A stretch of DNA of 38,183 nt. Origin: Candidatus Moranbacteria bacterium CG23_combo_of_CG06-09_8_20_14_all_35_22. GTDB taxonomy: Bacteria > Patescibacteriota > Minisyncoccia > Moranbacterales > UBA2206. Below the pieces are notes generated by a model. That model saw only the letters and a program-made list of their open reading frames with translations, was not told where the DNA came from and did no database searches. The stretch is from contig PCRW01000068.1 of the NCBI GenBank assembly GCA_002772115.1, positions 1 to 38,183 of the forward strand. Direction: 5' to 3'. The translations under genes and the position numbers were made by a program. Shown here one piece after another: positions 6,118 through 21,666 of the stretch (position 1 is its first letter; each line of letters starts with the position of its first letter).

Positions 6118-6170
6118 AATAAACTGTTGCTATTGATTATATTTTGTTTATTGTTTATAATTATTTTAGC

Positions 6171-7697: not shown

Positions 7698-7715
7698 TTA
7701 TTTTAGGATAAAAAT

Positions 7716-9248
7716 ATGCAAAATAAAAAAAATTTCTTAATTATGTTGATGCTAGTAGTTTTTCTTGGTGCGGGGCTGCGCATTTATAACTTAGGCAACA
7801 CTTCTTTTGATCGAGATGAATTCTTTGAGCTCAATTCTTCCTATGGTTATTTTAAAACAGGCACTTGGGTAGCCTGGGATTTTGGCAATGAGAAACCGTT
7901 TGAAGCGAGCTTGCAAGACAAAACTAGTACGGAGCGAGCGGAAATTTATCGCTGGCAATTGGCGCAGGTGTATAAATTTTTTGAACCGACAGAAATTTCA
8001 ACTCGCGCGATAAGTGTTTTTTGGGGAATTGTGAGTATTCTTGCCATATATTTTGTGACTCTTTCGTTTACGGGAAATTATTGGACAGCACTTTTGGCAG
8101 CTTTTTTGGTTGCAGTTGGTGAATCAGGCATAGTTTATAGTCGACGACTTCGTATGTACTCAATGCTTTTTCCTGTTTACTTAATTTTTTCTTGGTGTGT
8201 TTTCAAATTTTATGAAACGAAATATATCGGCAAGAATAAATTTTTTAAATTAGCTTCCGACAAACTAAATGTCAACTTGTTGTACATTTTGCCGGTAATA
8301 ATCACAGGGATTGTGAGCTACAATGTGCATATGCTTTCAGTGAGTATTGTGGTGGCAATTTTTTCTTTTTGTGTTTGCAGTTGGTTTTTATGGGAGAGAA
8401 AAAGTGGGAAAATAAATAAATATTCCATTACATTAGGAATGATTTTTATTGCCTATCTTATTGTGAGCTTGACTCCAAGTCTAGCTAAATTCTACAAATC
8501 ATTCAAAAAACAAGTCGAGCTTTTCAAATTTAATTATAATTATTTTACCGAATATTTTACGGATTTTATTTTTCCAATTGTCGGTTTAGTTTTGGCGCTT
8601 ATTGGAGTATGGTATTTATTTGAAAAAATGAAGAGAAAAAAAGAAGCAGTTTTTCTTTTTCTTTCGGCATTTGCCGTACTTGCTTTTGCTGTTTTCACTT
8701 GGGACAGAACTCCCTCTGGTCGTTACATCTATTTCATTCAATCTTTTGGCATAATTCTTGTGTCCGTTGGAATATACGCACTTTTCATCTATTTGACTGA
8801 TTATATTAAAAAACACAAGAAAATAGCGGGGATAATTCTGTTGATATTTTTTCTGGTGCTGATGGATTGGTCTTATTTCAAAAAAGAAAATAATATCTAT
8901 GCTCATACGAAAAATTCATATTATCCAGATTTTAAAAATATTTTTCCTTATATTTTAGAAAACAAAAAAGACGGAGATGTTTTTTTTACGCGATCATACC
9001 GTAGTTATTATTGGCAAGGAGAAAAAATAAAAGTAATTGATCTCCAGTCGCTTCCATTTGAGAAAAAAGATTGTTTGAAAAATGTCAGTGAAGTTATGGC
9101 GAAAAATCCAAAGGGCTGGTTTATTCTACCAAAAATAGATATGAATTTAATCTGCAAAGACGGGATAAAATATCTGGATGATAATTTTGAAAAAGTAAAA
9201 GATGAACATATTCCAACTTCTGTTTCAGTTTATCGTTGGGGTGGATAA
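7716..9248 (+). CDS. GT-C-fold membrane glycosyltransferase (ArnT/PMT-like), tandem paralogue B
   Basis: FDRDEFFELNSSYGYFKTGTWVAWDF. It shares long identical blocks with paralogue A (SVFWGIVSIL.IYFVTLSFTGNYW, RRLRMYSMLFP.YLIFSW, RYIYFIQSFGIILVS). Confidence 0.8.
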   Translation: MQNKKNFLIMLMLVVFLGAGLRIYNLGNTSFDRDEFFELNSSYGYFKTGTWVAWDFGNEKPFEASLQDKTSTERAEIYRWQLAQVYKFFEPTEISTRAISVFWGIVSILAIYFVTLSFTGNYWTALLAAFLVAVGESGIVYSRRLRMYSMLFPVYLIFSWCVFKFYETKYIGKNKFFKLASDKLNVNLLYILPVIITGIVSYNVHMLSVSIVVAIFSFCVCSWFLWERKSGKINKYSITLGMIFIAYLIVSLTPSLAKFYKSFKKQVELFKFNYNYFTEYFTDFIFPIVGLVLALIGVWYLFEKMKRKKEAVFLFLSAFAVLAFAVFTWDRTPSGRYIYFIQSFGIILVSVGIYALFIYLTDYIKKHKKIAGIILLIFFLVLMDWSYFKKENNIYAHTKNSYYPDFKNIFPYILENKKDGDVFFTRSYRSYYWQGEKIKVIDLQSLPFEKKDCLKNVSEVMAKNPKGWFILPKIDMNLICKDGIKYLDDNFEKVKDEHIPTSVSVYRWGG

Positions 9249-9286
9249 AAAGCAAAATTCTAAAAAATAAATTTTAAACTAAAACA

Positions 9287-10792
9287 ATGAAAAAAGAAAA
9301 AAATATTATTTTTGTTGCATTACTTTTTATACTAGTATTGGGATTTTTTTTGCGTTTTTATAAACTTGGGCAACAGCCATTTGTGACGGATGAGTTTTTG
9401 GATATTAACGCTACTTATGGATATTTTAAAACTGGGCAATGGTTGGCGTGGGATTTTAATCTAGATCAAGTGAGTGAAAATTTATATACTCAAAGAGAAG
9501 AACGCTCTTGGCTTTATCGCATTCAGGTGGCACAATTGTTTCATTTCTTTCCTTTGACAGAAGCAACGGCGAGGTCAGTGAGTGTCATTTGGGGAATAAT
9601 TAGTATTATTATTTTGTATTTTACAGCTACTTATTTTACTAAAAACAAAATCATTGGTCTTATCTCGGCTTTTCTTTTCGCAGTGAGTATCGCTGGAATA
9701 ACTTTTGATCGAATGCTTCGAATGTACGCCATGTTTTTTCCTGTTTTTCTCCTTTTTTCTTGGTTTCTCTTTCGATTTTTTGAGGAAGAATATGTGGGCA
9801 ATGTTGCAATTATGAAGCTCGTTTGGAATAAATTTGGAATAAATTTAGTCTGGTTTTTGCCAACAACATTTTTTGGATTATTGAGTTTTCATCTGCATCC
9901 GCTTACGCTTAATATTGGCGTGGTTTTTGGTGCTTATCTTGTCATCCAATCCTGCTTGGCTTTTTATCAAAAAAGAACCATATTAAATAAATATACAGTT
10001 ATTTTATTTTTAACATTGATTGGTTTGATTATAGTGTATATAAAAAATCCTCAAGTATATTCGTTTTATTCCAAAAAAGATCTGATTGCTTTTGATCATG
10101 CAAGATGGCGATATTTGCAAGCAATAGTTTCAGATTATATGAATATTATCTTGGCTTACGGATTGATTGTTTCCGGTTTTTATAATCTAAGAAAAAATAC
10201 TAAAATTAAAAAAGAATTAATTTGGCTGATTTGTTGTTTTTTTGCGATAGTTTTTTCGGCAGTTTTCTTGTGGAATGAAGTTTTTGGTTTGCGTTTTATT
10301 TTCTTTGCGATGTCTTTTGGGATAATCTTGCTTTCAAGCGGGATATATTTTTTTGCAGACAAAATTGGAAAATATTTTCTCGCGTATCAGAAAAAAGTTT
10401 TTATTGGTGTGCTAGCACTGGCACTTCTGATTGTTCCAAATTATGCTTATTTTTTTTCCAAAGAAAGTCCGTATCGAAAAGATGAAACTAAAACTGATTA
10501 TCGATCAGCTTTTCAATATTTTTTGGAGAATAAGAATGAAGGTGATGCTTTGCTTACGCGAAATTTTCGCAGTTTTTACTATAAAAACGCTAAAGCTAAA
10601 ATTATCAATAAGGAATGGAACAAAAAAATCAGTTTGGATGAATTGAATAAAATAATGATAGAAAATCCCAGTGGATGGATTGTGACAGGCGATCCAAAAG
10701 GGGACATGGAAAAAGACGCTTTGAAATATATAGAAGAAAATTCGTCAGATAAAAAAGAAATCAGTGGAGTTCAAATTTATCATTGGAATTAG
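9287..10792 (+). CDS. GT-C-fold membrane glycosyltransferase (ArnT/PMT-like), tandem paralogue C (most diverged)
   Basis: FVTDEFLDINATYGYFKTGQWLAWDF, with the same topology as A and B. Its C-terminal domain lacks the two Cys present in A and B. It overlaps the convergent gene by 4 nt. Confidence 0.8.
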   Translation: MKKEKNIIFVALLFILVLGFFLRFYKLGQQPFVTDEFLDINATYGYFKTGQWLAWDFNLDQVSENLYTQREERSWLYRIQVAQLFHFFPLTEATARSVSVIWGIISIIILYFTATYFTKNKIIGLISAFLFAVSIAGITFDRMLRMYAMFFPVFLLFSWFLFRFFEEEYVGNVAIMKLVWNKFGINLVWFLPTTFFGLLSFHLHPLTLNIGVVFGAYLVIQSCLAFYQKRTILNKYTVILFLTLIGLIIVYIKNPQVYSFYSKKDLIAFDHARWRYLQAIVSDYMNIILAYGLIVSGFYNLRKNTKIKKELIWLICCFFAIVFSAVFLWNEVFGLRFIFFAMSFGIILLSSGIYFFADKIGKYFLAYQKKVFIGVLALALLIVPNYAYFFSKESPYRKDETKTDYRSAFQYFLENKNEGDALLTRNFRSFYYKNAKAKIINKEWNKKISLDELNKIMIENPSGWIVTGDPKGDMEKDALKYIEENSSDKKEISGVQIYHWN

Positions 10793-11817
10793 TATTTTTT
10801 TGTGCTGACTGTCGCCGAATTGCCGTTTATTTTTACCACAGCAATCATTCTTTGATGATAGGCGGAAGGAATATTATAATTTTTCACTCCGCCAAAATCT
10901 ATAATTCCAAGTGTGGCTGGGTGCTTGTGTCCATTGGCAACTAAAATAATTCGATCTTTATTTTTCTTAAGAATTTTTGAGACTTCATTTTTATTCACCA
11001 AATTCCAAAGTGGATGATGGATAAAGATTATATTTTTGGAACTTTCTTTGAGTCGGCTTTCTAGCCAGTCTAGTGCACCAGAAGTGAGTGTGCCGGTGTA
11101 AATGAAATCGTCAGCATGCTTGGCGTCAATGTGAGTTTCTTCATCAGTGTAGTTGGCATCCAAGACTATAATTTGATAACCTTTAGTATTGGCAACAAAT
11201 CGATTTTTTCGGCCAGTCAAATTTTCAACATTATCCTTGCTCATACTTAGTAGTTCATGATTTCCAATGACATGATAAAGCGGAAAATAAGCAGAAATAA
11301 TGCCACTGGCTTTTTTATAATCCGCCTCGGCCGATTTTTTGGAAATTTCCTTATAGTCCACCCGACTTTCAATTAAATCTCCCAAATCCACAACGATATC
11401 CGGCTGAACTTGATTACGCAAAGTTGAAACAGCTAAATTCAATAAAGTGAAGCCATGTTTTTGTCCGGCATGAGCGTCAGCGATAATCCCAATCGTCAAA
11501 TCAGGGCGTGGAACTTCTTCCTTGGGAGTTTCCTCTTTAGCGGTTTCTTCTGAATTACTTTCTTCTGGCACGGCATTATTTTCCTCTGGTTTTATTTCTG
11601 GTTCCTTGGGCGTTGCTGACTCTGCTTGCACTTCCTGTACCGGTTGAATTTCGGTTAAAGTTATTTCTTGCTCTGGCTCTTTTTCGGCGCCAAAAAGCGC
11701 TACGAAATTTTTTGGATATTGAGAGAAAAAAATCAAAACTAGCGCCGGTAAAATCAAAAGTAAAGGCAGAAATTTTGCTTTGGTTGATTTTTTTTCTACA
11801 ATAACTAAATCATCCAT
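10789..11817 (-). CDS. Membrane-anchored calcineurin-like metallophosphoesterase, paralogue 3, with an E/P-rich linker
   Basis: N-terminal TM helix (FLPLLLILPALVLIFF), then a low-complexity E/P/T linker of about 60 aa. MPE motifs are ADAHAG, GDLIES, GNHE, IHHP and NGHKH. Confidence 0.85.
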   Translation of the reverse strand: MDDLVIVEKKSTKAKFLPLLLILPALVLIFFSQYPKNFVALFGAEKEPEQEITLTEIQPVQEVQAESATPKEPEIKPEENNAVPEESNSEETAKEETPKEEVPRPDLTIGIIADAHAGQKHGFTLLNLAVSTLRNQVQPDIVVDLGDLIESRVDYKEISKKSAEADYKKASGIISAYFPLYHVIGNHELLSMSKDNVENLTGRKNRFVANTKGYQIIVLDANYTDEETHIDAKHADDFIYTGTLTSGALDWLESRLKESSKNIIFIHHPLWNLVNKNEVSKILKKNKDRIILVANGHKHPATLGIIDFGGVKNYNIPSAYHQRMIAVVKINGNSATVSTKKY

Positions 11818-11820
11818 AAA

Positions 11821-13314
11821 TTATTTTTTCTTAAATATTATTTTTTTGAAAAAAGTAAAATCATCAAGGGTGAATTCTTTGAGGATAATTAAAACAAGAA
11901 GATAAATCCCAGCTAGGATAACGCTCCACAAAATGAAAAACCATTCTTGCGGAGGAAAAAAATTCGAAACAAGAAACATCAAAAATCCGGCGAAAATTAT
12001 TTTTGCAATGCTTTTTATTTGGATGAATTTTCCAAAATATCTTAGCGCATAAAATAATATTATCACAGTTATCAGTCCTGAAACAAGAGAAGTGGCGATG
12101 GCTGATCCGGAAATGCCAAATTTTAAAATCAAAATATAATTTAATCCAGCATTCAGAATCATTCCAAAAAGCGCAATGTACATTGGAATTTTGACTTTGC
12201 CGGCACCATTTAGCGCAAAACTTAGAACATAAAAAATTGTCAAAAATCCAACACCAGGAGCGAGGATTTGCATTGGCAAGACGGAATCGGCATAGCGGGA
12301 ACCAAAAAATAATTGAATGAGGGGTTCGGCATAAGCAACCATAAGAATTATTATCGGAACTAAAATCATCAGCATCAATCGAAAAGTCTGGCTCATTATC
12401 CGTTTTGTTTCTGTGAGATTATTTTGGGAAGTGGTTCTGGAAATCGAAGGCAACATTACCAAAGTTAGCGCGTAAAATAAATAATAGGGGATTCGGCCGA
12501 CAGTGAGTGAAGCGTTATAAATTCCAGTTAAATGATCATCAGCCAGCACTCCTTTGACTAGATATAAGTCCAAAGAAATCAGGAGTTCATAAAAAATCAT
12601 AAAAAGTGTCACGGGCCAAGCGTAATTAACTAGTTTTTTCCAATCAAAAAAATTCGCATTATTTTTGGGAAAATGCCGATTAATGAAAAATTTGTCAATC
12701 AGATAGGCGGTAAGAAAAACCGTAGCGGGAGCGAGAATATAGCCAGAGATGGAACCTTTCAATCCAAAAAAATAAGCTAGGCCAATAACAAAAATTATTC
12801 TGGCAAAAGAGCGAACTATTTTTAGGGTGGATTGCAGACTGAAGCGGTGAATGCCGATGTAATAATAAAGATAAAAAGAAGCGGCGGCAAAAGAGGGGAT
12901 AATCAAAGAAGAAATACGAAAAAGCGGAGTGAGAGTTGGATCACGCAAAATAAAGGATAGTACGGGAGCTAAAAGAAAAAATATTATCGTAATTATCCCA
13001 ATGAGGACAAATTGTAGTAAGGCCGCCTTTTTTTTGACACTCAAGACTAATTCTGGCTGACTTTCAAAAAAACCACTGATGTATTTACTCATAGCTGTCG
13101 GGATGCCATTGCCGATAAGCATAATGATCATTGTAGTGAGTGTCACAACTAATCCATAGCGTCCATAATCCGCGGGACCTAGCATTCGACCTAAAAATGC
13201 ATGGATAATATAACCAGAAAAATTGAAAAATATTTCTGCAATAGCCAGCCATAAAATTGAAGAAACTACGGTTTGTTTTTTTTCGCCAAAGGATGATTTT
13301 GCTAAATTTGACAT
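11821..13314 (-). CDS. Polysaccharide/oligosaccharide flippase (Wzx/MOP superfamily)
   Basis: 497 aa with about 14 TM helices and the typical polysaccharide-biosynthesis-protein layout. A 3-nt gap separates it from the downstream MPE gene, and its start overlaps the upstream gene by 13 nt. Confidence 0.75.
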   Translation of the reverse strand: MSNLAKSSFGEKKQTVVSSILWLAIAEIFFNFSGYIIHAFLGRMLGPADYGRYGLVVTLTTMIIMLIGNGIPTAMSKYISGFFESQPELVLSVKKKAALLQFVLIGIITIIFFLLAPVLSFILRDPTLTPLFRISSLIIPSFAAASFYLYYYIGIHRFSLQSTLKIVRSFARIIFVIGLAYFFGLKGSISGYILAPATVFLTAYLIDKFFINRHFPKNNANFFDWKKLVNYAWPVTLFMIFYELLISLDLYLVKGVLADDHLTGIYNASLTVGRIPYYLFYALTLVMLPSISRTTSQNNLTETKRIMSQTFRLMLMILVPIIILMVAYAEPLIQLFFGSRYADSVLPMQILAPGVGFLTIFYVLSFALNGAGKVKIPMYIALFGMILNAGLNYILILKFGISGSAIATSLVSGLITVIILFYALRYFGKFIQIKSIAKIIFAGFLMFLVSNFFPPQEWFFILWSVILAGIYLLVLIILKEFTLDDFTFFKKIIFKKK

Positions 13315-13916
13315 AATTTTTTTATTTCTTCAAAAACACTTTCTTTATTTTGATTGCCGTCAATTTTTTTCATATTCCAAAAGGAAAAATTAGCGTCATA
13401 CAATTCTTTTTTCTTTTTCAAATACTCCATTCCTTGATCAGGTTTTCGTTCGCGAGACATAATGATTTGCGGATCAGTTTGAAGATAGATCGCCAGATTT
13501 GGCTTCCTAACATCCGATGTTAGGAGTACTTTCCTAACATCGGATGTTAGGAGCGAAAGGTATTCAATATTCACAATGCTGTCATAAAAATATCGATCAC
13601 TTAATATATAATCAAATTTTTCTTTTTCCAATTTCTTGTATAATTTTTTAAAACGCCAAAGATCAATCATTAAAAATATTTTTCGTAAAAATATTTGAAA
13701 AAAATTGGCACGGATAACGCTTTTTTCTTTCTTGGACATTCGATGTCCAATTGGACATCGAATGTCCAAGAGACAACTAATTTTTTTAGCAAGGCCAAAC
13801 TCAATGGCATGAAAATAAAAGACCCGTTTATTTTGGGATTTTAGATATTCTTTTAGTAATTCTATTTGAGTGGATTTTCCAGAGCCATCTAGGCTGGAGA
13901 TTGTGATTAATTTCAT
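13302..13916 (-). CDS. Tmk-like P-loop NMP-kinase-fold protein carrying two palindromic in-frame inserts
   Basis: P-loop SLDGSGKSTQ, SDRYFYDS (DRY-type motif) and PNLAIYLQTDP (compare Tmk PDLTLYLD). The TMP-binding REPGGT-type motif is not visible, so true thymidylate kinase activity is uncertain. Confidence 0.6.
   Translation of the reverse strand: MKLITISSLDGSGKSTQIELLKEYLKSQNKRVFYFHAIEFGLAKKISCLLDIRCPIGHRMSKKEKSVIRANFFQIFLRKIFLMIDLWRFKKLYKKLEKEKFDYILSDRYFYDSIVNIEYLSLLTSDVRKVLLTSDVRKPNLAIYLQTDPQIIMSRERKPDQGMEYLKKKKELYDANFSFWNMKKIDGNQNKESVFEEIKKLCQI
13504..13557. repeat. Tandem 27-nt repeat (x2), each unit a 9-bp-stem hairpin, in-frame in the Tmk-like CDS
   Basis: ttcctaacatc[c]gatgttaggagtact / ttcctaacatc[g]gatgttaggagcgaa. 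The two hairpins differ only in the central loop base, so they are reverse complements of each other. They encode LLTSDVRKV-LLTSDVRKP. Confidence 0.9.
13731..13770. repeat. 40-nt perfect nested palindrome in-frame in the Tmk-like CDS
   Basis: cttggacattcgatgtccaa|ttggacatcgaatgtccaag. The whole segment is self-complementary and each half is itself an 8-bp-stem hairpin. It encodes ...LLDIRCPIGHRMS... Confidence 0.9.
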
Positions 13917-13925
13917 GTGATTCTC

Positions 13926-13972
13926 TACGAATTACGAATTAGTACGAATATACGAATGGGATTAATACGAAA
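13926..13972. repeat. TACGAAT heptamer array (4 exact copies plus 1 variant)
   Basis: tacgaat occurs at 13926, 13933, 13943 and 13951, and tacgaaa at 13966. The array fills the spacer between the RtcB-like stop and the Tmk-like start. Confidence 0.85.
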
Positions 13973-15278
13973 GGATTTCTACTGTTTCTAATTTTGCCAC
14001 TGTTTTAATTATTTTATTTTCTTCCATTTCGTGGACAATTTTTTCGGCGTATTCTTTGGGATTTTCCAAGCCAGTTATTTTGCCAATTTCATGATTAGCA
14101 GAGAAGAAGGTTTCTTCGTTTTGATCAGTGCCTACGCCAATATAAGCGATTTTATTGGCAAAAGGAGCAATTAGCACTGGTTCGCCAGTTTGGGAGAAAA
14201 TCGCGTGGGGAGTCATTTTTGAGGGTCCGTATGCGCGATTAGCACCATTTCGATGGATAATAACTTTTTGATTAAAATGTGTTTCCTCGTCAAAATAGAC
14301 ATGTGGAGCATCATAAAGCAGTTTGGTCGAAACGGATCTAGCGAATATTTTTTCCAGTGCTTTGTGGATTTCGCAAGTTATCAAGGTTCGATTGGCAAAA
14401 CCATAATTTCCGGTGGCACGAAAAGCTGTGTCAATTTTATTTTTGTCATTGATTTGAATTGAGGGTGAAAAAAGTTTGATAAAAAGCAGGATTAATTTTT
14501 GGGAAAAACTCTTTATTTTTCTGGAAGTATAGAGCGAGGCAGTGTAACGGCCAACAATACTTGAACCCGTATGTATAAAAAAAAGATATTGGTTATTTCT
14601 AATTCCCAGGGTTGAAGCGAGGTTTTCATCTAAAATTTCTGATACTCGCATAAGATAAATGAAATGACTGTTGGTTGCTCCAAGAAGCCCAAGGCGAAAT
14701 TTGGCAATCCAAGAAATTATTTTTGGAACGGCATTGGAAATTTCTTGTTTAGATATTTCTTGATTAGCAAAAAAATTACCTTGAGAAAAAGTATTTTCAA
14801 ATTCATTTTTTGTGCAAATTGGGAAAACTCTTTCCAAAGCTTTACTACCGAGTTGAAAAATATCCATTACCATTTCTTTGGAAATTTTTGTGCCAATTAT
14901 TTTTTTGGAAGGGATGTTTTTCTGGAGTTCAGCAAAAAGATTCTTTATATTTTCTTCAGTTAATTCTTTTCCGGCAAGATCAGTCAAAATAACTCGCATT
15001 CCGCAATTAGTGGCGGAATCCAACATTTCCGGGATAATATTTTTTGAAGCAACGACTGCGCCAGTAGGATTTTCTATGTTTGGCTTAGTGTGAGCTTCAC
15101 TAAGAACAGCAATGTCGTGAAAAACATTTTCATTTGCAGCTATTTTTTCAACTGCCTCCAAGACATCACTTTTTTCAAAATTTCTTTCTTCGGAAAACAA
15201 AATAGCCGGTACTTTCATTTTTTCCGTTTGGAAACTTTTTTTGTTTTCAGAAATATTTTCTAAATTATATTTATTCAT
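13962..15278 (-). CDS. Divergent RtcB-family protein (RNA 3'-phosphate ligase fold)
   Basis: It aligns block by block with E. coli RtcB. DIAVLSEAH...NIIPEMLDSATNCGM matches HIAVMPDVH...AIIPAAVGVDIGCGM, and GATNSHF matches GTGNHF. IHTGSSIVGR matches LHSGSRGIGN, and APHVY...HRNGANRA matches CHHNY...TRKGAVSA. SANHEIGK matches SCSHGAGR. Its start overlaps the upstream GT4 stop by 4 nt. Confidence 0.75.
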   Translation of the reverse strand: MNKYNLENISENKKSFQTEKMKVPAILFSEERNFEKSDVLEAVEKIAANENVFHDIAVLSEAHTKPNIENPTGAVVASKNIIPEMLDSATNCGMRVILTDLAGKELTEENIKNLFAELQKNIPSKKIIGTKISKEMVMDIFQLGSKALERVFPICTKNEFENTFSQGNFFANQEISKQEISNAVPKIISWIAKFRLGLLGATNSHFIYLMRVSEILDENLASTLGIRNNQYLFFIHTGSSIVGRYTASLYTSRKIKSFSQKLILLFIKLFSPSIQINDKNKIDTAFRATGNYGFANRTLITCEIHKALEKIFARSVSTKLLYDAPHVYFDEETHFNQKVIIHRNGANRAYGPSKMTPHAIFSQTGEPVLIAPFANKIAYIGVGTDQNEETFFSANHEIGKITGLENPKEYAEKIVHEMEENKIIKTVAKLETVEILSY

Positions 15279-16393
15279 AAAGTCTTATAAATATCTTCAT
15301 AAATTTCAGCAATTTTTTTGATATCAAAATTTTCCTCGCAAAATTTTCGGGCGTTTTTTCCAAGCAAGATTCGCTTTTCTTTATTTTGATATAAATCAAA
15401 AATCGCGTCAGTTAATTGTTGCAAGTTGTCTTTTTCAATTATAACAGAATTATTATTATTGCCCAATTCTTTTAGAATTTCCAGATCCGTTAAAATTATT
15501 GGTTTTTCACAAGCCATTGCCTCAATAACAGCGAGAGGGATATCAAACTTCCCTCGCATATTTTGCACTGGGAAAAGACTGATGTCACAGAGATTATAAA
15601 CTTCTGGCATATCGTATTTGCCATTATCAAAAAAAGAAACTTTCTCTCGAAGATTATTTTTCTTGATTTTTTCCATAACCTTTTCTTTTTTTTGAGCGTC
15701 TTTTTCGTTTTTAATTCGAACTGCTAAAGTTAGCTTGGCCGTGGGAATTTTTTTGGAAATTTCAATGAAACTATCAACGACTAAATCAATCGCTCCAAGA
15801 CGCACATATTCGCCAGAAAAATTTATCACAAAATCATCTTGCGAAATGTTTTTTTCTCGCATAAGCTCTGGATTTTTTTCTTGCAGTTGATATTTTTCTA
15901 GATCAATCCCTGGGTAAACTCTTCTGACATTTTGAAAGCCCAACGAATCCAATTTATTTTTAGCATGATCAGAGTAGGTGATAATGAGATCGGCAAACAT
16001 CAATTTTTTTATATCACAATCTGACCAAAGATCATCACGAAGAGAAGCGATGGTTTGAATTGTTTTAGTATGCTTAGATTTTAAGAAATTTTTAATCAAG
16101 TAGGAATTAAGTTTTGTCGGTGTGAAAAAATAATGATTGATATCAAATTGGCCTTTGGTTTTGAATTGGAAAAGTAGGGCACGCAGTTTTTGGGAAAAAT
16201 TAAAATCCGAAACCTTGGAAGTAGTATAGATATCATTAGAAACAACATTTTCTGGAAGTTCTGGTAAAATTCCCTTGGTCATTAAGTTAATTTCAAAACC
16301 AACTAGGTTTTTGGCTAGATAATAGGCGAAATTTTTAGAACCCTCATCCCAAGGCGGAGCAATCGGTCTTGTTACTAAGAGTATTTTTTTCAT
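15275..16393 (-). CDS. GT4-family (GT-B) glycosyltransferase
   Basis: 372 aa. The C-terminal EX7E-like region is FPVQNMRGKFDIPLAVIEAMACEKPIILTD. It is the first gene of the co-directional operon 16393->10789. Confidence 0.8.
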   Translation of the reverse strand: MKKILLVTRPIAPPWDEGSKNFAYYLAKNLVGFEINLMTKGILPELPENVVSNDIYTTSKVSDFNFSQKLRALLFQFKTKGQFDINHYFFTPTKLNSYLIKNFLKSKHTKTIQTIASLRDDLWSDCDIKKLMFADLIITYSDHAKNKLDSLGFQNVRRVYPGIDLEKYQLQEKNPELMREKNISQDDFVINFSGEYVRLGAIDLVVDSFIEISKKIPTAKLTLAVRIKNEKDAQKKEKVMEKIKKNNLREKVSFFDNGKYDMPEVYNLCDISLFPVQNMRGKFDIPLAVIEAMACEKPIILTDLEILKELGNNNNSVIIEKDNLQQLTDAIFDLYQNKEKRILLGKNARKFCEENFDIKKIAEIYEDIYKTL

Positions 16394-16439
16394 ATTGACA
16401 AATTTTAACTTTTAGTGTAGTTTTTATTTAGCACATTAT

Positions 16440-16745
16440 TAACCCGAGTTCGAAAGGCGAAACACGCATCAATTGTGAGTGGCCGTGCCATTCATTTCAT
16501 TACTGCGGTTTTCGGCTTCAGGACTCAATTTCCCCGAGGGTTGCGTAACTATAACGCGATTTTGGATTAGGTTTCTGTGTTTATGGAAACCAAATGCAAT
16601 AGTTTTTCAATATTATTGCAATAAATATCCGCCCTCGGGCCCCAACATTTTGGCTAGGAGGCTGTTAAAAACGCCTCTGCCTCACTCCTCAGCAGGAGAC
16701 AGTGGTTTCCCTCCTGTTTCCACTTTTCCCTCCTGCTGAGTTTTT
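16440..16745 (-). ncRNA. Structured GC-rich ncRNA, class unconfirmed; best guess is a reduced RNase P RNA on the minus strand
   Basis: An island of about 300 nt, much more GC-rich than its flanks, lies between two CDSs. It has many nested helices: cccgaggg 16533-40 pairs with ccctcggg 16632-39; ggat pairs with atcc around the hairpins ggtttc/gaaacc and tgcaata/tattgca; gcgt pairs with acgc; gaggc pairs with gcctc. On the minus strand, AAUGAAUGG followed by a P2-like 3' strand, and then CGAACUCGGGUUA, resemble RNase P CR-IV and CR-V. A P2/P3/P4-like pseudoknot order is possible. The universal GGAAAGUCC and a P1 helix are not recognisable. The 86-aa ORF at 16479-16739 is judged spurious. Confidence 0.4.
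16688..16745. terminator. Long GC-rich hairpin: candidate intrinsic terminator, or the terminal helix of the ncRNA
   Basis: An 11-bp stem (ctcagcaggag ... ctcctgctgag) encloses an inner agtgg/ccact hairpin. It is followed on the + strand by tttttattttt. On the - strand it begins about 10 nt after the stop of 16750-17109 but has no U-tract. Confidence 0.35.
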
Positions 16746-16749
16746 ATTT

Positions 16750-17109
16750 TTACAAATTTTTATAAATTTCTTTTTTCTCATCTTTCGAAATTACCAAAAT
16801 GGTAATTTTTTTATTTTCGCTCGCGAGAGCCAAATCAGGATTTAGTTGCAAGGCCGAACCTTTTTTAATCTCCGCTTCTCCTTCTTGAATTTTCTTTTTA
16901 TTAGATAGGATTTCCCAATGGAAATTATTTTCATCACTGTGATTTTCAATGATAAAATTAAGCTTGTCAGATTTTGGTTCGGCAAAATATAATACCCACC
17001 AATTTTTTCCAGTATTTTCATTAGATTGTTTTTTTTCAATCCAAGCCAAGGAAGAAGCGCTGAAAATAAAAAAGATTATGGTTGTAAAAATAATTGTTTT
17101 AGATTTCAT
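16750..17109 (-). CDS. Small exported or membrane-anchored hypothetical protein
   Basis: 119 aa. An N-terminal signal/anchor (IIFTTIIFFIFSASSLA) is followed by a domain of about 95 aa. The gene starts 5 nt downstream of the large membrane protein gene. Confidence 0.7.
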   Translation of the reverse strand: MKSKTIIFTTIIFFIFSASSLAWIEKKQSNENTGKNWWVLYFAEPKSDKLNFIIENHSDENNFHWEILSNKKKIQEGEAEIKKGSALQLNPDLALASENKKITILVISKDEKKEIYKNL

Positions 17110-17114
17110 AAAAA

Positions 17115-19043
17115 TTATTTTTTAGGTTTATAATAAGTTCCAATCAAATTGGAAGAATATATTTTCCAAAATTCTTTGGAGTTACTAAATTGTGAACTAT
17201 CATAATAGGGATTGACCACCACAAAATTTATTCCAGTTTCCGCAAAACATTCTTTAGCTTCAGAGGACTTTGGTTGAGAAATCATCCAGAGAGTGCACTG
17301 TTCGTGAGTTGGAGCGTCATAGCGAAAAAGAAAACTTCGGGTAAAAGGATAATTGTAATCGCGCATCAAAAAAACTTTCATCCAAGAATCAGCCAAAACA
17401 TAATTATGGTCTTTGAGAATAATATCCTCATAGTTTGTTTTTTGGGAAAGATATTTGGAAACCGCGAAAGTTTCAATGAAATCGGAATTAGATTTTTTCG
17501 GATTGATCGATTGCGCTTCGGACATAAAACCGCCGGTTGAAATATACAGCATTAGAATTAAAAAAGCGGATAATTTCCAATTTTTATTCAAATAATATCG
17601 GTCTTCTTTTTGGGCATAAAGATAATCAAAAAAAATCCAATTTATAGCAAAAGCCCCAGCAAGGATAAGAGGAAAAATCAAATAATTTCCGATGCGGGAA
17701 GAAGGAATGTCAATGTGAAGTAGTGTTGGTTTCCAAGACATGATAAAAATTGAAAAAAACCAGCCTAAAATCAAAGCACTGTGGTATTTATTTTTCTTGA
17801 AAAAAACAAGAAGTAAAATTATCCCAATTGTTCCTAGGGTGGCACGACTTTCTCCGACAGTGGAAAATATTTGCGCCAAGCTTAGTCCCGCCTTGGTTGA
17901 ACGGGATGGTTCGCCGACAATTGTTTTGACGGCTTGATTTTCAATGTAGCTAGGCATTCTTACAAAAAAGAAAAAAATAACTCCCAGAAAAATAATGGTC
18001 AAGACGCGGGGAGAAAAAATCAACACCAGCCATTTTTTTATTTCCGAAAAAAATTCTTTGCCTCTGAAAAGTAAAATAAAAAACAAAACAGATAGTAATG
18101 AAGAGGCGAAGATAAAAGTGCTAAGATGATGAGTATAAGCGAGGCCAAAAGAAGTGAAAATTCCCAAAGAAAAAAAGGCTGAATTTTTTTCACTTATCGC
18201 GCGAAAGAAAAAATAAAAAATTAAAGGAATGAGTAAATTACCAAGAAGATTTCCGATCACGCCACCGCTGACGAAGTTACCTTGCGAGCCAGAAAGAGCA
18301 AACAGGGCGCCAACAAAAAACAAAACCGTGATGGAAATATTTTTTCCGTATGGCAAAGAAGAAAAAAGTTTTTCCGCTAGAATGAAAAGAGAAAACATTC
18401 CCATAATATTTATCAAAAATAATATTATCGAAGGAAAAGCTGATACAACATTATTTTTTGAAATAAGTCCGATAGAAGCAAAAACCAAATGTTCGCCGAT
18501 TATGAAATCATCAATAGTTGCTGGTTGGCTAATAGAATAAGCATTATCTTTTTGGATTATCTCTATTTTTTCATAAGCGGGAATTTTTCCGGTCTCAATG
18601 ATTTTTTTGGTCCAATACATATGATGACCAAGATCAGTTCCCGTTGGGGCAATGGTGTGAGAAAGAAAAAAAGCGCGAATTAGAATACTAAAAAATATAA
18701 TTAGAATTATTAAGGATGTTTGTTTTTTGGAATAATTGGAGTTGCTCGAATTTTCTGCTTGTTTTTCTTTTTGAAGCAAAAACACTGCGTAACATAAAAT
18801 AATAAAAGCGATAAGAGAGAACAAAATAGAATTGGCATTGATGGACAATTTGAATTTATCCAGCAAAATCAAAATTATATCAACAGCAATGATACTTAAT
18901 CCGAAAGAAAGGGTAAATTTTTCTAGAGCACTTAATATTTTTGATTTGCCAAAAATTGCCAAAAGCAAAAAATAACCCGGGATAAATAAAATCACGGCTA
19001 TGGAGGTATAAAATAATATTTGATTAAAAATAAAATTTAACAT
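17115..19043 (-). CDS. Large polytopic membrane protein, possible GT-C-like glycosyltransferase or polymerase (function unassigned)
   Basis: 642 aa with more than 12 TM helices. It has an extracytoplasmic loop with TGTDLGHHMYW and a soluble C-terminal region of about 130 aa. I recognise no family-diagnostic motif with confidence. Confidence 0.55.
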   Translation of the reverse strand: MLNFIFNQILFYTSIAVILFIPGYFLLLAIFGKSKILSALEKFTLSFGLSIIAVDIILILLDKFKLSINANSILFSLIAFIILCYAVFLLQKEKQAENSSNSNYSKKQTSLIILIIFFSILIRAFFLSHTIAPTGTDLGHHMYWTKKIIETGKIPAYEKIEIIQKDNAYSISQPATIDDFIIGEHLVFASIGLISKNNVVSAFPSIILFLINIMGMFSLFILAEKLFSSLPYGKNISITVLFFVGALFALSGSQGNFVSGGVIGNLLGNLLIPLIFYFFFRAISEKNSAFFSLGIFTSFGLAYTHHLSTFIFASSLLSVLFFILLFRGKEFFSEIKKWLVLIFSPRVLTIIFLGVIFFFFVRMPSYIENQAVKTIVGEPSRSTKAGLSLAQIFSTVGESRATLGTIGIILLLVFFKKNKYHSALILGWFFSIFIMSWKPTLLHIDIPSSRIGNYLIFPLILAGAFAINWIFFDYLYAQKEDRYYLNKNWKLSAFLILMLYISTGGFMSEAQSINPKKSNSDFIETFAVSKYLSQKTNYEDIILKDHNYVLADSWMKVFLMRDYNYPFTRSFLFRYDAPTHEQCTLWMISQPKSSEAKECFAETGINFVVVNPYYDSSQFSNSKEFWKIYSSNLIGTYYKPKK

Positions 19044-19055
19044 TTTTAAAAACAG

Positions 19056-19083
19056 GTAATTTGTAAATAGTAATTTGTAATTT
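19056..19083. repeat. Tandem 14-nt AT-rich direct repeat in the spacer upstream of 17115-19043
   Basis: gtaatttgtaaata / gtaatttgtaattt, followed by three tttact units (19101-19127). Confidence 0.6.
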
Positions 19084-19108
19084 GGAAAAATTTAATCCAA
19101 TTTACTAA

Positions 19109-20233
19109 TTACACTTTACTATTTACTGATTTTATAATTTCTTCTAAATATCTCTGCGAAATTTTTTCCCAAGTGAAATTTTCCTCAACATATTTTCCGG
19201 CCATTTTGCCAAAATTTTTGGCAAATTCTGGTCCGGCGGAAAAAATAGCCTGGATTTTCTTGACCCATTGTTCGGTGTTTTCGCTTTCAACCAGAAAACC
19301 ATTCTTGCCATCCTTAATTGCTTCCGCCAAACCTTGATAATTAGAAGCAACAACTATTCGCTCACATGCTCCCGCCTCAATAACATTAATTCCAAAACCT
19401 TCCACTGATTCAGGATAGGGAATATTTGGAGATACAACTAAATCAACAGTATTCAAAAGCACTTCCAAATCTTTTTGTGGTAGATTGGGCATTAACTTTA
19501 CTCTGTTTTCTAAACCATTTTCCTTGATGGCCTTTTCGCAATCGGAAAAATTATCCGGATCGCCAGCGGTGTTTTTGGCCACTCGATATCCAGTTGCAAT
19601 CATAAGTGTATCTTCGGAGAGTTTTGGCATAACATTTTTTATAAACCAAGCCGTGCCTTTATGCGGAACAAATCTGCCAAGACGCAAAATAATTTTTTTG
19701 TTAGTAATATCGGAACCCCACAACGCAGACAAATCTTGTCGAGAAAATTCCTTTTTTAAATTTTCGATAAAAACCCCATTAGGAATGAAAACGCAATTTT
19801 CTTTGGGAATTCCAATTTTAACTGCTTCTTCGATAGTAAAATTTCCAATCATAAAAAGTTTGTCAAGTTTTTTGAGAGAGGGAATGTTAATCGCTTTGTA
19901 AATTTTTGGTAAATTTCCCTTTTTATAAGCAAAGGTTATATCTAATCCATGCACAACAGAAAAAAACTTTTTCTTAGGATGAAAAATTTTCAAAGCAAAA
20001 GCAATTGGCGCCAAAACGCCATTACCCACAAGACAAGCGTCATAATTCATCATTAAAAAAAATGCCCGTAGGAAAGTTATGGGTATAAAAACAGGAAGCC
20101 ACCATTTGCCTCGGCCATTGGCGATAATTTTAACAGTAGCAATTTTTGAAAGCCCTTGAGCTAAATTGTAATTTTGACTTTCCACTCCACCAAGAATTGG
20201 AGGATAGGAATGGGAGATAAAAAGAATATTCAT
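19109..20233 (-). CDS. GT4-family glycosyltransferase
   Basis: N-terminus ILFISHSYPPILGGVE. EX7E region ESVEGFGINVIEAGACERIVVAS. Confidence 0.8.
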   Translation of the reverse strand: MNILFISHSYPPILGGVESQNYNLAQGLSKIATVKIIANGRGKWWLPVFIPITFLRAFFLMMNYDACLVGNGVLAPIAFALKIFHPKKKFFSVVHGLDITFAYKKGNLPKIYKAINIPSLKKLDKLFMIGNFTIEEAVKIGIPKENCVFIPNGVFIENLKKEFSRQDLSALWGSDITNKKIILRLGRFVPHKGTAWFIKNVMPKLSEDTLMIATGYRVAKNTAGDPDNFSDCEKAIKENGLENRVKLMPNLPQKDLEVLLNTVDLVVSPNIPYPESVEGFGINVIEAGACERIVVASNYQGLAEAIKDGKNGFLVESENTEQWVKKIQAIFSAGPEFAKNFGKMAGKYVEENFTWEKISQRYLEEIIKSVNSKV

Positions 20234-20237
20234 ATTT

Positions 20238-20346
20238 ATGATGCAAATACACGAATCTTATGCTAATCTACGAATATGCAAATAATAGCGATTCGCATAT
20301 TTGTGTATTTGCATGAAAGCAATTCGCGTCATTCGTATTATAGTTT
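20238..20346. repeat. 109-nt dispersed repeat, copy 1 (fills the spacer between GT2 and GT4)
   Basis: tgatgcaaatacacgaatcttatgctaatctacgaatatgcaaataatagcgattcgcatatttgtgtatttgcatgaaagcaattcgcgtcattcgtattatagttta. I counted 5 differences from copy 2. Confidence 0.85.
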
Positions 20347-21321
20347 ATTATATTTATCCTTCTTCCATTGATAGAAAAATTCTTCGGTGAGTTGGCGGGT
20401 GGATTTTATCATATCGGCGATGAGAGCAAAAATTATCAGTTGGATTCCAAGAAACATGGAGATTGAAGAAAAAACAATATAATTGAGATAGGGTCGAATT
20501 TTGAAATCTTGGAAATAGAAAAAAAGAAAAAATATAAAACCAATTAAACCTAAAATCATAAAAAATATTCCTGGCCAGCCGAAAAATTTTAGCGGTCGGA
20601 CATCGCGGACTGCTTTGAGAATAATTTTTGTAGAATTACTTACAAATTTGAAAATAGATTTGGTGATTTTGGCTTGGCGATTGTCAAAATAAGTGACTGT
20701 GATTGGTACCCATTTCAATTTCAAATTTTTTCCAATAGCGTCAATTATCGTATCTTGAGTATAAGTAAAATACAGATTAGTCAAATTTAGCCGAAGAAGT
20801 GCTTCTCGAGAGTGAGCACGAAAACCACAAGTTAGGTCATTAGTTTTGTAATTTAGGAAAAAACCAATTACAGAAGCGGCAAAACGATTGAAGAAACTTC
20901 GTACCCACGGAATGTTTTTCGCTTTTTGTTCTCCAAAACGATTAGCAATTACTATATCTGCTTCTCCTTTTAGCACTGGCAAGAGAAGTTTAGGAATATC
21001 ATTAGGATCAAATTGTCCATCCGCATCAATATTTACCATAAAATCAGCGCCATTTTTGAGTGAGCTTTCCACTGCTTGTTTGAAAGAATAAGCCAAACGG
21101 CGATTAGGTTTATAAGAAACGACAATATCAGCGCCATTTTCTTTGGCAACTCGGGCAGTGCCATCAGTTGAGCCGTCGTTTACTACTTGAATTAATTTTT
21201 CATCTATCACGGTGCCTTCATTAGAATAAAAATTATGGGCAAAACTTTTTTTGATATTTTGAATTGTTTTTCCCAAATCCTTTTCTTCATTATAAGCGGG
21301 AATGTTAATGATTAGTTTCAT
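20338..21321 (-). CDS. GT2 polyprenyl-phosphate sugar synthase-like glycosyltransferase (Dpm1/GtrB/ArnC type)
   Basis: INIPAYNEEKDLGKTI, VNDGSTDGT and the DxD motif NIDADGQ are present, plus two C-terminal TM helices. This is the usual donor-making partner of GT-C enzymes. Confidence 0.8.
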   Translation of the reverse strand: MKLIINIPAYNEEKDLGKTIQNIKKSFAHNFYSNEGTVIDEKLIQVVNDGSTDGTARVAKENGADIVVSYKPNRRLAYSFKQAVESSLKNGADFMVNIDADGQFDPNDIPKLLLPVLKGEADIVIANRFGEQKAKNIPWVRSFFNRFAASVIGFFLNYKTNDLTCGFRAHSREALLRLNLTNLYFTYTQDTIIDAIGKNLKLKWVPITVTYFDNRQAKITKSIFKFVSNSTKIILKAVRDVRPLKFFGWPGIFFMILGLIGFIFFLFFYFQDFKIRPYLNYIVFSSISMFLGIQLIIFALIADMIKSTRQLTEEFFYQWKKDKYNKL

Positions 21322-21329
21322 AATAATTG

Positions 21330-21438
21330 TGATGCAAATCCACGAATCTTATGCTAATCCACGAATATGCAAATAAGAGTGATTCGCATATTTGTATATT
21401 TGCATGAAAGCAATTCGCGTCATTCGTATTATAGTTTA
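21330..21438. repeat. 109-nt dispersed repeat, copy 2 (fills the spacer between the small ORF and GT2)
   Basis: It has the same sequence and orientation as copy 1. Together the two copies directly bracket the GT2 gene at 20338-21321. Confidence 0.85.
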
Positions 21439-21666
21439 CTTTTTCTTAATTATTAACTTGGGGTCGATACATTTAAAATTACACTCGGCATTGTCGACAC
21501 CTTGATGATATATGTTATTAGTACATTCTTTCATTTTTTCCTCACATTGTTTTTTAGCGCCGGAAAAATAGTTGCGGTTTACTTCATAGCCAAAAAAATT
21601 CAGCACAAAATAGACTGCTACCAAGAAAAGAACCATCCAAATTGCAAATTTAATAATGCTAAACAT
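21436..21666 (-). CDS. Small membrane protein with a Cys-containing tail (hypothetical)
   Basis: 76 aa with one TM helix (WMVLFLVAVYFVLNFF) and four Cys in the C-terminal half. Confidence 0.55.
   Translation of the reverse strand: MFSIIKFAIWMVLFLVAVYFVLNFFGYEVNRNYFSGAKKQCEEKMKECTNNIYHQGVDNAECNFKCIDPKLIIKKK

Follow-up and report, generated by a model that had tools for sequence, protein, structure and literature searches.

A stretch of 38,183 nucleotides from a Candidatus Moranbacteria genome (contig PCRW01000068.1), hereafter called the window, carries five consecutive minus-strand genes at positions 10789-16393. Among them, a divergent relative of the RNA ligase RtcB and a relative of the dTMP kinase Tmk lie between the genes of a glycosyltransferase and a flippase. 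Comparison with related loci suggests that the RtcB-like protein may be an enzyme of the envelope-glycan pathway that surrounds it. The features of the five-gene unit are listed below from upstream to downstream.

15275..16393, minus strand: GT4-family glycosyltransferase, termed GT4a (372 amino acids, cytoplasmic; PF00534 at 2e-18, PF13692 at 1e-15)
13962..15278, minus strand: divergent RtcB-fold protein of the "short" Moranbacteria sub-clade (438 amino acids; PF01139 at 4e-47)
13917..13961, minus strand: spacer between the RtcB-like and Tmk-like genes (45 nucleotides, with about four copies of ATTCGTA)
13302..13916, minus strand: Tmk-fold P-loop kinase-like protein of a distinct subfamily that accompanies RtcB-like genes (204 amino acids; PF02223 at 2.8e-11)
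11821..13314, minus strand: flippase of the MOP superfamily, Wzx/MurJ-like (497 amino acids, multi-pass membrane protein; PF01943 at 9e-22, PF13440 at 1e-20, PF03023 at 4e-11, and MatE)
10789..11817, minus strand: metallophosphoesterase MPE3, membrane-anchored and probably extracytoplasmic (342 amino acids; PF00149 at 1e-12), peripheral and outside the conserved core

Gene calls in the window use the first start codon of each open reading frame (ORF). They agree with an earlier note, made from the sequence alone, on the coordinates and shared orientation of the five genes and on the four junctions between them, namely a 4-nucleotide overlap (15275-15278), a 45-nucleotide spacer (13917-13961), a 13-nucleotide overlap (13302-13314) and a 3-nucleotide gap (11818-11820). 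The five family assignments made in that note are upheld by Pfam (PF00534, PF01139, PF02223, PF01943 and PF00149). GT4a has the C-terminal Glycos_transf_1 domain of GT-B enzymes, and its N-terminal match to PF13439 is weak (5.5e-4). On inspection of their sequences, no hydrophobic N-terminal segment was found in the RtcB-like, Tmk-like or GT4a proteins. The window has a G+C content of about 33%, and its Tmk-like protein is 100% identical to one from Candidatus Moranbacteria bacterium CG23_combo_of_CG06-09, a member of the Patescibacteria. Because terminator-like sites in it are not enriched (7 observed versus 8.8 expected from shuffled sequence) and the scan placed none at any junction of the unit, co-transcription of the five genes is plausible.

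The RtcB-like protein has the RtcB fold. Its AlphaFold model (pLDDT 88, pTM 0.90) aligns with structure 4dwq of Pyrococcus horikoshii RtcB (PhoRtcB) at a Foldseek TM-score of 0.81 and 22% identity, and the PhoRtcB sequence matches the window protein at 1e-26. On the TIGR03073 model the protein scores 37 bits versus a cut-off of 272. A HMMER scan of 1.84 billion representative proteins returned a graded series of RtcB-like relatives. In a rough neighbor-joining tree computed from BLOSUM distances, the Moranbacteria proteins form one clade with two sub-clades, one of long proteins (roughly 497 amino acids) and one of short proteins (roughly 438 amino acids) that includes the window protein. The short sub-clade is marked by two deletions, one of which removes about 30 residues after the nucleophile. 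Some long-clade proteins have weak precomputed matches to PF25891 (Hl_ALG44). The earlier note had called the protein divergent, and rightly so, as it does not group with ordinary RtcB in this rough tree or in the comparison of residues that follows.

Active-site residues were tabulated, in PhoRtcB numbering, for 54 canonical RtcBs, 20 other noncanonical proteins, and 71 long and 7 short Moranbacteria proteins. The roles of the residues are taken from PhoRtcB structures (PMC9745838, PMC8051266). All four groups, without exception, have the metal ligands C98, H203, H234 and H329 and the nucleophile H404, which correspond to C92, H205, H236, H326 and H396 in the window protein. The position of the fifth metal ligand, D95, is Ala in Moranbacteria proteins, which have an invariant Asp two columns earlier (D87 in the window). 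In addition to D95, the residues E206, K480, R238, H242 and N330 are replaced, and each of these six is present in 51-54 of the 54 canonical proteins.

The replacements fall at positions that contact the nucleotide and the RNA strand. E206 and K480 make guanine-specific contacts (PMC9745838). E206, which contacts N1/N2 of the base, is present in 54/54 canonical proteins, but is Asp in the long clade and Tyr, His or Lys otherwise (Tyr in the window). K480, which contacts O6, is likewise present in 54/54, but is Met in the long clade and Thr, Asp or Ser otherwise (Ser in the window). R238 holds the first two phosphates of the 5'-OH strand, and the E. coli R189 mutant seals 200-fold slower (PMC8051266; PMC9745838); this residue is Gly in the long clade and Ser in the window protein. 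H242, also a contact to the 5'-OH strand, is Gln in the long clade and Arg in the window protein, and the gamma-phosphate contact N330 is Val or Ile in Moranbacteria proteins. In the table, an invariant Arg occupies the Q194 column, and Ile stands in the R190 column. When the window protein is aligned with PhoRtcB alone, that Arg (R195) falls opposite R190, and Q194 has no counterpart. The long clade retains N202; the short clade has Ser in that column, beside a one-residue insertion. Four of the metal ligands, the His nucleophile and many residues around them stay invariant at 33-86% identity, which argues for selection for catalysis. The residue pattern thus indicates a catalytic core that is under selection and a nucleotide-base pocket and acceptor-strand site that have been rebuilt.

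The operon arrangement is not confined to one genome, a possibility that the earlier note had left open. It recurs in about 80 species-level genomes. A scan of one genome per GTDB species gave 80 loci with RtcB identities of 33-86%, and each locus comprises the ±10 kb around the match. ORFs in the loci were labelled with hidden Markov models (HMMs) built from window proteins and their relatives, and Pfam or NCBIfam models were used for individually named loci only. Nearly all of the loci are labelled Moranbacteria, Parcubacteria group or Patescibacteria, and the remaining labels are uninformative or evidently wrong. Many public records of metagenome-assembled genomes with the conserved gene block (including L014, L017, L020 and L022) are titled "uncultured Bdellovibrionales bacterium", and one is titled "Candidatus Saccharibacteria". 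Because of their gene content, these look like mislabelled taxonomy.

The recurring gene order is 76-amino-acid protein, GT2, GT4b, DUF6541, a protein of about 119 amino acids, GT4a, RtcB-like, Tmk-like and flippase. This block persists to 41% RtcB identity in the contexts of close and distant homologues. GT4a is the most constant neighbour: of the 75 Moranbacteria loci that were assessable for it, 65 have it directly upstream (<400 nucleotides) of the RtcB-like gene. The Tmk-like gene is downstream in 65/79 loci (within 400 nucleotides in 50), and a flippase is downstream on the same strand in 54 of the 66 that could be assessed. Flanking genes differ among loci, so rearrangements have happened around the block and rarely inside it. 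Where the block is split, the RtcB-like gene stays with the glycosyltransferase half. In L040, L048 and L050, a membrane-anchored phosphoesterase lies between the RtcB-like and Tmk-like genes, and in L080 the gene for cysteinyl-tRNA synthetase (CysRS) lies between RtcB-like and flippase genes. In three Patescibacteria loci that lack the glycan block, a CofD/YvcK-family gene ends 5-10 nucleotides before the RtcB-like gene (L074:116-1123, L078:616-1611 and L085:6154-7149). Its PF01933 match is about 1e-73 in L074 and L085, the two that were scanned.

The Tmk-like protein has a Tmk fold (TM-score about 0.7) and scores 43.9 bits on PF02223, above the Pfam cut-off of 27. Its score on the dTMP-kinase equivalog TIGR00041 is 44.2 bits, below the cut-off of 83.25. 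Residues that are invariant in the family include the P-loop D10-G-S-G-K14-S-T, D107-R108 of the DRY motif, and the lid arginines R155/R157. FYFHA(I) takes the place of the FPxR/REPGG motif of Tmks, which contains an Arg. A profile of the family matches solved Tmks at 45 bits and aligns with them at positions 2-52 and 105-204 only, which comprise the P-loop and the C-terminal half. The central dTMP-binding region of Tmks, with the NMP-binding (nucleoside monophosphate-binding) centre and the LLFxAxR helix, does not align. The E. coli and B. subtilis Tmk sequences served as further probes; Tmk-like genes score 15-20 bits with them, whereas a genuine Tmk in control locus L130 scores 72 bits. Apart from the Tmk-like genes, these probes found no Tmk in the 1.6 Mb of Moranbacteria loci, the extent of that search.

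More distant RtcB-like proteins (30-33% identity) are also found in glycan clusters, in other arrangements. L089 contains genes for an NTP-transferase, UDP-glucose dehydrogenase, RtcB-like and Tmk-like proteins, with a flippase, Capsule_synth and a phosphodiesterase on the opposite strand. In the sister-clade loci L091 and L172, the order is glycosyltransferase, radical SAM, LPG_synthase_TM, RtcB-like and putative glycosyltransferase, to which L172 adds a Tmk-like gene. The Moranbacteria Tmk-like HMM matches the kinases of L089 (2e-27) and L172 (2e-30). The RtcB-like gene is followed by GT4 in L088 and by a flippase in L098 and L104.

A second type of kinase-like partner is found in other loci. 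In eight loci, the gene just before the RtcB-like one is an ORF of about 360 amino acids that contains a P-loop and matches HprK-related kinase models weakly. These loci, which lie outside Patescibacteria, are L090, from a Calditrichia genome, and the metagenome contigs L092, L099 and L101-L105. The order in L099 and L103 is GT4, HprK-related kinase-like, RtcB-like and GT28-like. Two proteins fuse the HprK-related and RtcB-like parts. One, P0304, has 755 amino acids and 62% identity to the L099 ORF. The other, P0311, has 885 amino acids (L173:8001-10658) and is encoded in the order GlmS, GT4, epimerase, GT2, fusion, MOP flippase. The HprK-related/RtcB-like pair, adjacent or fused, is often flanked by glycosyltransferases and a flippase. 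The literature searched contained no description of an HprK-related/RtcB-like module. A third fusion, in one Moranbacteria lineage (L050/P0415), joins GT4a and the RtcB-like protein in frame. A word-indexed protein search for further GT4-RtcB fusions gave only the P0415 cluster, with five member sequences, and the GT4a-RtcB fusion is weak evidence by itself because it is a single cluster at 90% identity. All of the fusions are single clusters or representatives from metagenomes. Taken together, these arrangements form a recurrent module, recognized by sequence comparison, in which a P-loop kinase-like protein of either of two unrelated types accompanies a noncanonical RtcB-fold enzyme among glycosyltransferases and a MOP flippase.

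Canonical RtcBs have different surroundings. The metagenome scan for the distant clade used generic patterns, so most of the 80 loci that it returned carry canonical RtcBs, and these were used as controls. The control set comprises 54 canonical RtcBs with the G(Y/F)DINCG motif from loci L107-L171. With the same HMMs, no Tmk-like or flippase match was found near them, and the only glycosyltransferase matches were four distant ones to GT2, one of them accompanied by a GT4 match (L167). An archease-sized ORF with the SHTADVK motif, the feature by which it was recognized, lies just upstream of the canonical RtcB in L153 and L140, two of the three controls that were inspected (L140, L153 and L157), and in P0350 archease and a canonical RtcB form one protein. 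The window was found to encode neither archease nor RtcA or RtcR. In the 80 Moranbacteria loci, no archease-sized unassigned ORF adjoins RtcB, in a search whose HMM set had no archease model.

These observations point to the RtcB-like protein being a catalytically competent RtcB-fold enzyme of the operon's envelope-glycan pathway, either instead of RNA ligation or in addition to it. We give this reading an even chance of being correct, and a role in the glycan pathway with a non-RNA substrate stands at about the same level. Any single version of the chemistry is less probable. The broader proposal is that an RtcB-fold clade, paired or fused with Tmk-like or HprK-related proteins, has been drawn into the biosynthesis of glycoconjugates in several bacterial phyla, where it would nucleotidylate a phosphomonoester that is not a nucleic acid; we hold this slightly more tentatively, as somewhat short of even. 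The earlier note had offered recruitment to glycan chemistry as one of two readings. The comparative evidence favors it, through the varied cluster architectures, the fusions, and the lost guanine and RNA-strand contacts, and recruitment itself is what we infer from that evidence. The fold and the catalytic core are known, the context and partners are new, and the substrate class is probably new as well. In the literature searched, we found no report of an RtcB-family enzyme linked to glycan synthesis, to Patescibacteria or to HPr-kinase-like partners.

A possible mechanism follows from the chemistry of RtcB. In step 2 of the canonical reaction, a phosphomonoester accepts the NMP from the histidine and becomes X-P-P-nucleoside, and in step 3 a hydroxyl displaces the NMP to form a phosphodiester. 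In the proposed pathway, H396 (the equivalent of PhoRtcB H404) and the binuclear metal site would take NMP from a nucleoside triphosphate (NTP), which need not be GTP because the base pocket is remodelled. The NMP would then be passed to a phosphomonoester, as in step 2 of RtcB. The candidate acceptor is a sugar-, lipid- or polymer-phosphate, perhaps made or processed by the partner P-loop kinase-like protein, which is Tmk-like here and HprK-related in other phyla. The resulting X-P-P-nucleoside could have either of two fates. It might be an activated nucleoside diphosphate (NDP) donor for the adjacent cytoplasmic GT4, or a hydroxyl might attack it to create a phosphodiester linkage in an envelope polymer. 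The product would be put together at the cytoplasmic face of the membrane before the MOP flippase exports it. In this scheme the substrate, the nucleotide used and the role of the kinase are all inferred.

The most serious alternative is that the RtcB-like and Tmk-like genes are housekeeping hitch-hikers, namely the lineage's ordinary RNA 3'-phosphate/5'-OH ligase and its dTMP kinase, whose position has been kept by descent and genome compaction without any tie to glycans. We consider this the less likely reading, but several observations fit it. The PF01139 match is strong, and the RtcB fold is intact, as are the His nucleophile and all but one of the five metal ligands; likewise, the partner has the PF02223 match, the Tmk fold, the P-loop, the DRY motif and the lid arginines. 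A Tmk is indispensable to any organism with a DNA genome, and the 1.6 Mb of Moranbacteria loci yielded no other. It could be that the lineage has no other RtcB than this one and no other dTMP kinase than the divergent Tmk-like protein.

Several further points weigh against a glycan role. All 80 Moranbacteria loci represent one lineage, with compact genomes of a kind that often packs genes of unrelated function together, and because these loci are not phylogenetically independent, the synteny count is inflated. Housekeeping genes do intrude into the block, as with CysRS in L080 and a weak MazG-like ORF in L001. The GT4a-RtcB fusion could reflect a lost stop codon. The control scan can miss distant glycosyltransferases, because its HMMs derive from Moranbacteria proteins and not from Pfam. 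Finally, the wider noncanonical clade has retained E206 and K480, as well as R238 in about half of its members, so it may still act on RNA.

Other evidence speaks against ordinary housekeeping enzymes. E206, K480, R238, H242 and N330 are replaced, despite their near-uniform presence in canonical RtcBs, and no archease was found in the window or beside RtcB in the related loci. At least six unrelated architectures, together with three fusion proteins, show the association with glycosyltransferases, flippases and kinase-like proteins, inside or outside Moranbacteria. The low scores of the Tmk-like protein against the E. coli and B. subtilis probes, relative to the real control Tmk, and its unaligned NMP-binding centre also count against this alternative. 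Rearrangement has repeatedly altered what flanks the block and has spared its core.

A second alternative, which we regard as distinctly improbable, is that the two proteins form a kinase-assisted pair for RNA repair or processing. The kinase would prepare an RNA end, for example by converting 3'-OH to 3'-phosphate, and the RtcB-like protein would seal it. The targets might be tRNA, rRNA or the operon's own mRNA, with co-regulation alongside envelope genes as a stress response. Recurrent pairing or fusion of a P-loop kinase-like domain with an RtcB-like protein fits any two-step phosphate chemistry, including that of RNA, and this alternative also gains from the guanine contacts and partial retention of R238 in the wider noncanonical clade, and from unusual in-frame hairpins in the Tmk-like mRNA (described below). 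However, neither Tmk-type nor HprK-type proteins are known to act as RNA 3'-kinases, the contacts to the RNA strand are gone from the Moranbacteria proteins, and no RNA gene or Rfam match is nearby. The constant placement among glycosyltransferases and flippases and the GT4 fusion would be left unexplained. That the RtcB-like protein is a noncatalytic scaffold or regulator of the glycan machinery is very improbable, since its constant position beside GT4a and the one fusion to GT4a would fit, but four of five metal ligands, the His nucleophile and many nearby residues are invariant at 33-86% identity.

The earlier note had also remarked that a kinase, a ligase and a phosphoesterase in one operon recall the triad of Pnkp-type RNA repair. 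Its view that the phosphoesterase is membrane-anchored with a Glu/Pro-rich linker, and probably outside the cell, fits the sequence of MPE3, which has a Lys-rich start and a 19-residue hydrophobic N-terminal segment followed by such a linker. An N-terminal membrane anchor and an acidic linker are found in all six Moranbacteria phosphoesterases that were inspected (three from the window and three from related loci). MPE3 follows the flippase only in the closest relatives, and is absent from most syntenic loci. The analogy to Pnkp therefore does not hold: a triad acting together in the cytoplasm is rejected, since the phosphoesterase probably works outside the cell and does not accompany the RtcB/Tmk pair consistently. 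Moreover, RtcB requires 3'-phosphate and 5'-OH ends, so end healing by a Pnkp-like enzyme would work against it. The likeness to Pnkp/Hen1-type systems is confined to the same three enzyme classes in one operon, whereas Hen1 is lacking here and the phosphoesterase is probably extracytoplasmic.

The Tmk-like gene and its surroundings contain several sequence features of a different kind.

13725..13776: palindrome inside the Tmk-like gene, in frame (arms of 28 nucleotides, 93% complementary)
13505..13552: pair of 21-nucleotide hairpin units inside the Tmk-like gene, in frame (LLTSDVRK encoded twice)
16394..16749, minus strand: structured intergenic region between the 119-amino-acid gene and GT4a (356 nucleotides; folding z-score -3.9)

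The in-frame palindromes sit at two hypervariable loops of the Tmk-like protein, and also occur at L010:11711-11764, L012:4528-4575 and L008:11810-11847. Perfect stems of at least 10 bp are found in 15/65 Moranbacteria Tmk-like genes (maximum 27 bp), compared with 5/79 RtcB-like genes, which are 2.4-fold longer, and 0/60 GT2 genes. The stem sequences differ among species. A mobile hairpin repeat was considered and rejected, as the repeats of the Tmk-like gene are not dispersed elsewhere in the window. Possibilities for the hairpins are a signal for mRNA processing or stability, or a hotspot for hairpin insertion. The intergenic region at 16394-16749 is relatively G+C-rich, and a 12-bp stem immediately follows the stop codon of the upstream gene. 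Conservation of the region extends only to the closest relative (L008), and no Rfam family matches it. From its sequence, it is likely to be the terminator/promoter boundary of the five-gene unit. In another close relative, L001 (86% RtcB identity), the position of the 45-nucleotide spacer is occupied by an ORF of 118 amino acids (9304-9660). This ORF resembles MazG/PRA-PH nucleotide pyrophosphohydrolases weakly and below threshold (E 0.005-0.017), and the repeat-filled spacer of the window is possibly a deletion scar.

The unit lies within an envelope-glycan region that occupies approximately the first 28 kb of the window. This region contains three membrane-anchored metallophosphoesterases, the flippase, five further GT4/GT2 genes, a Wzy_C protein and an LCP transferase, as well as a DUF1616/DUF6541 membrane protein, a GT4-LPG_synthase_TM fusion, a PMT-like GT-C protein and three paralogous membrane proteins. 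The upstream half of the conserved block (16750..21666) comprises the following genes.

21436-21666, minus strand: 76-amino-acid membrane protein
20338-21321, minus strand: GT2
19109-20233, minus strand: GT4b
17115-19043, minus strand: DUF1616/DUF6541 membrane protein
16750-17109, minus strand: 119-amino-acid membrane protein

At 2175-4262, a single protein of 695 amino acids joins a GT4 glycosyltransferase to an LPG_synthase_TM (MprF-like membrane) domain. LPG_synthase_TM proteins are also encoded directly upstream of the RtcB-like gene in L091 and L172. At 6144-10792 on the plus strand, three tandem genes for paralogous membrane proteins of about 500-517 amino acids follow the PMT-like GT-C gene. 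None of the three has a Pfam match above threshold; two have very weak matches to PMT/PMT_2 (E 0.0098 and 0.25) and the third has none. They are probably GT-C-type glycosyltransferases. The trio converges on the operon, with the last gene overlapping the end of the phosphoesterase gene by 4 nucleotides, and genes of this type recur beside the block in many relatives. The Wzx/Wzy/LCP-type region looks complete, but no initiating phosphoglycosyltransferase (PF02397 or PF00953) was found in the 38-kb window. Also, the window has no tRNA genes or Rfam matches.

RtcB is known only as an enzyme that joins nucleic-acid ends, in tRNA splicing, in the unfolded-protein response and in RNA or ribosome repair. 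If the glycan reading is true, the RtcB family would have its first substrate other than RNA or DNA, and glycan synthesis a new route of phosphate activation. The chemistry of RtcB would thereby extend to glycans or lipids, a case that the fusions to kinase-like proteins and a glycosyltransferase strengthen. It would also supply a missing activation step for the poorly understood envelopes of Patescibacteria (also known as the Candidate Phyla Radiation, or CPR), whose reduced genomes often lack standard pathways. If instead the genes are housekeeping genes, the finding would bear on annotation, as hundreds of Patescibacteria genomes would carry the labels "RtcB family protein" and "dTMP kinase" on unusually divergent housekeeping enzymes.

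The system resembles several known ones in part. Canonical RtcBs such as P. horikoshii PH1602, E. coli RtcB and human RTCB have the same fold, Cys/His metal ligands and His nucleophile, and the same predicted chemistry of a covalent His-NMP followed by transfer to a phosphomonoester. In contrast, the RtcB-like gene sits inside an operon of glycosyltransferase and flippase genes, and its product has E206, K480, R238, H242, Q194 and N330 replaced and D95 displaced. The RtcB2-PrfH ribosome-rescue module and other bacterial RtcB paralogues are precedents for specialized partners or targets (PMC9223846, PMC13166195). However, RtcB2-PrfH repairs RNA (16S rRNA) with a release-factor homologue, whereas the partners here are glycosyltransferases, a flippase and P-loop kinase-like proteins.

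The Tmk-like protein shares with Tmk (PF02223) the fold, the GxGKST P-loop, the DRY motif and the lid arginines. It differs in the FYFHA motif, the unaligned dTMP helix region, the two hypervariable loops and an equivalog score below the cut-off, and its subfamily accompanies RtcB-like genes in three different architectures. The region as a whole is like Wzx/Wzy-type clusters in its MOP flippase, Wzy_C protein, several GT4/GT2 enzymes, LCP transferase and PMT-like GT-C protein; the differences are the RtcB-fold enzyme and Tmk-like kinase in the core and the lack of PF02397/PF00953 in the window.

The proposed chemistry has parallels in other pathways. In the F420 pathway, CofC/CofD activate a phosphomonoester as X-P-P-guanosine and transfer it to a hydroxyl with release of GMP. 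This transfer by CofD is of the same reaction type as the last step of RtcB. GalT makes NDP-sugar through a covalent His-NMP intermediate. The folds of these enzymes are unrelated to that of RtcB, and the likeness is one of proposed chemical logic only; CofD/YvcK-family genes precede the RtcB-like gene in L074, L078 and L085.

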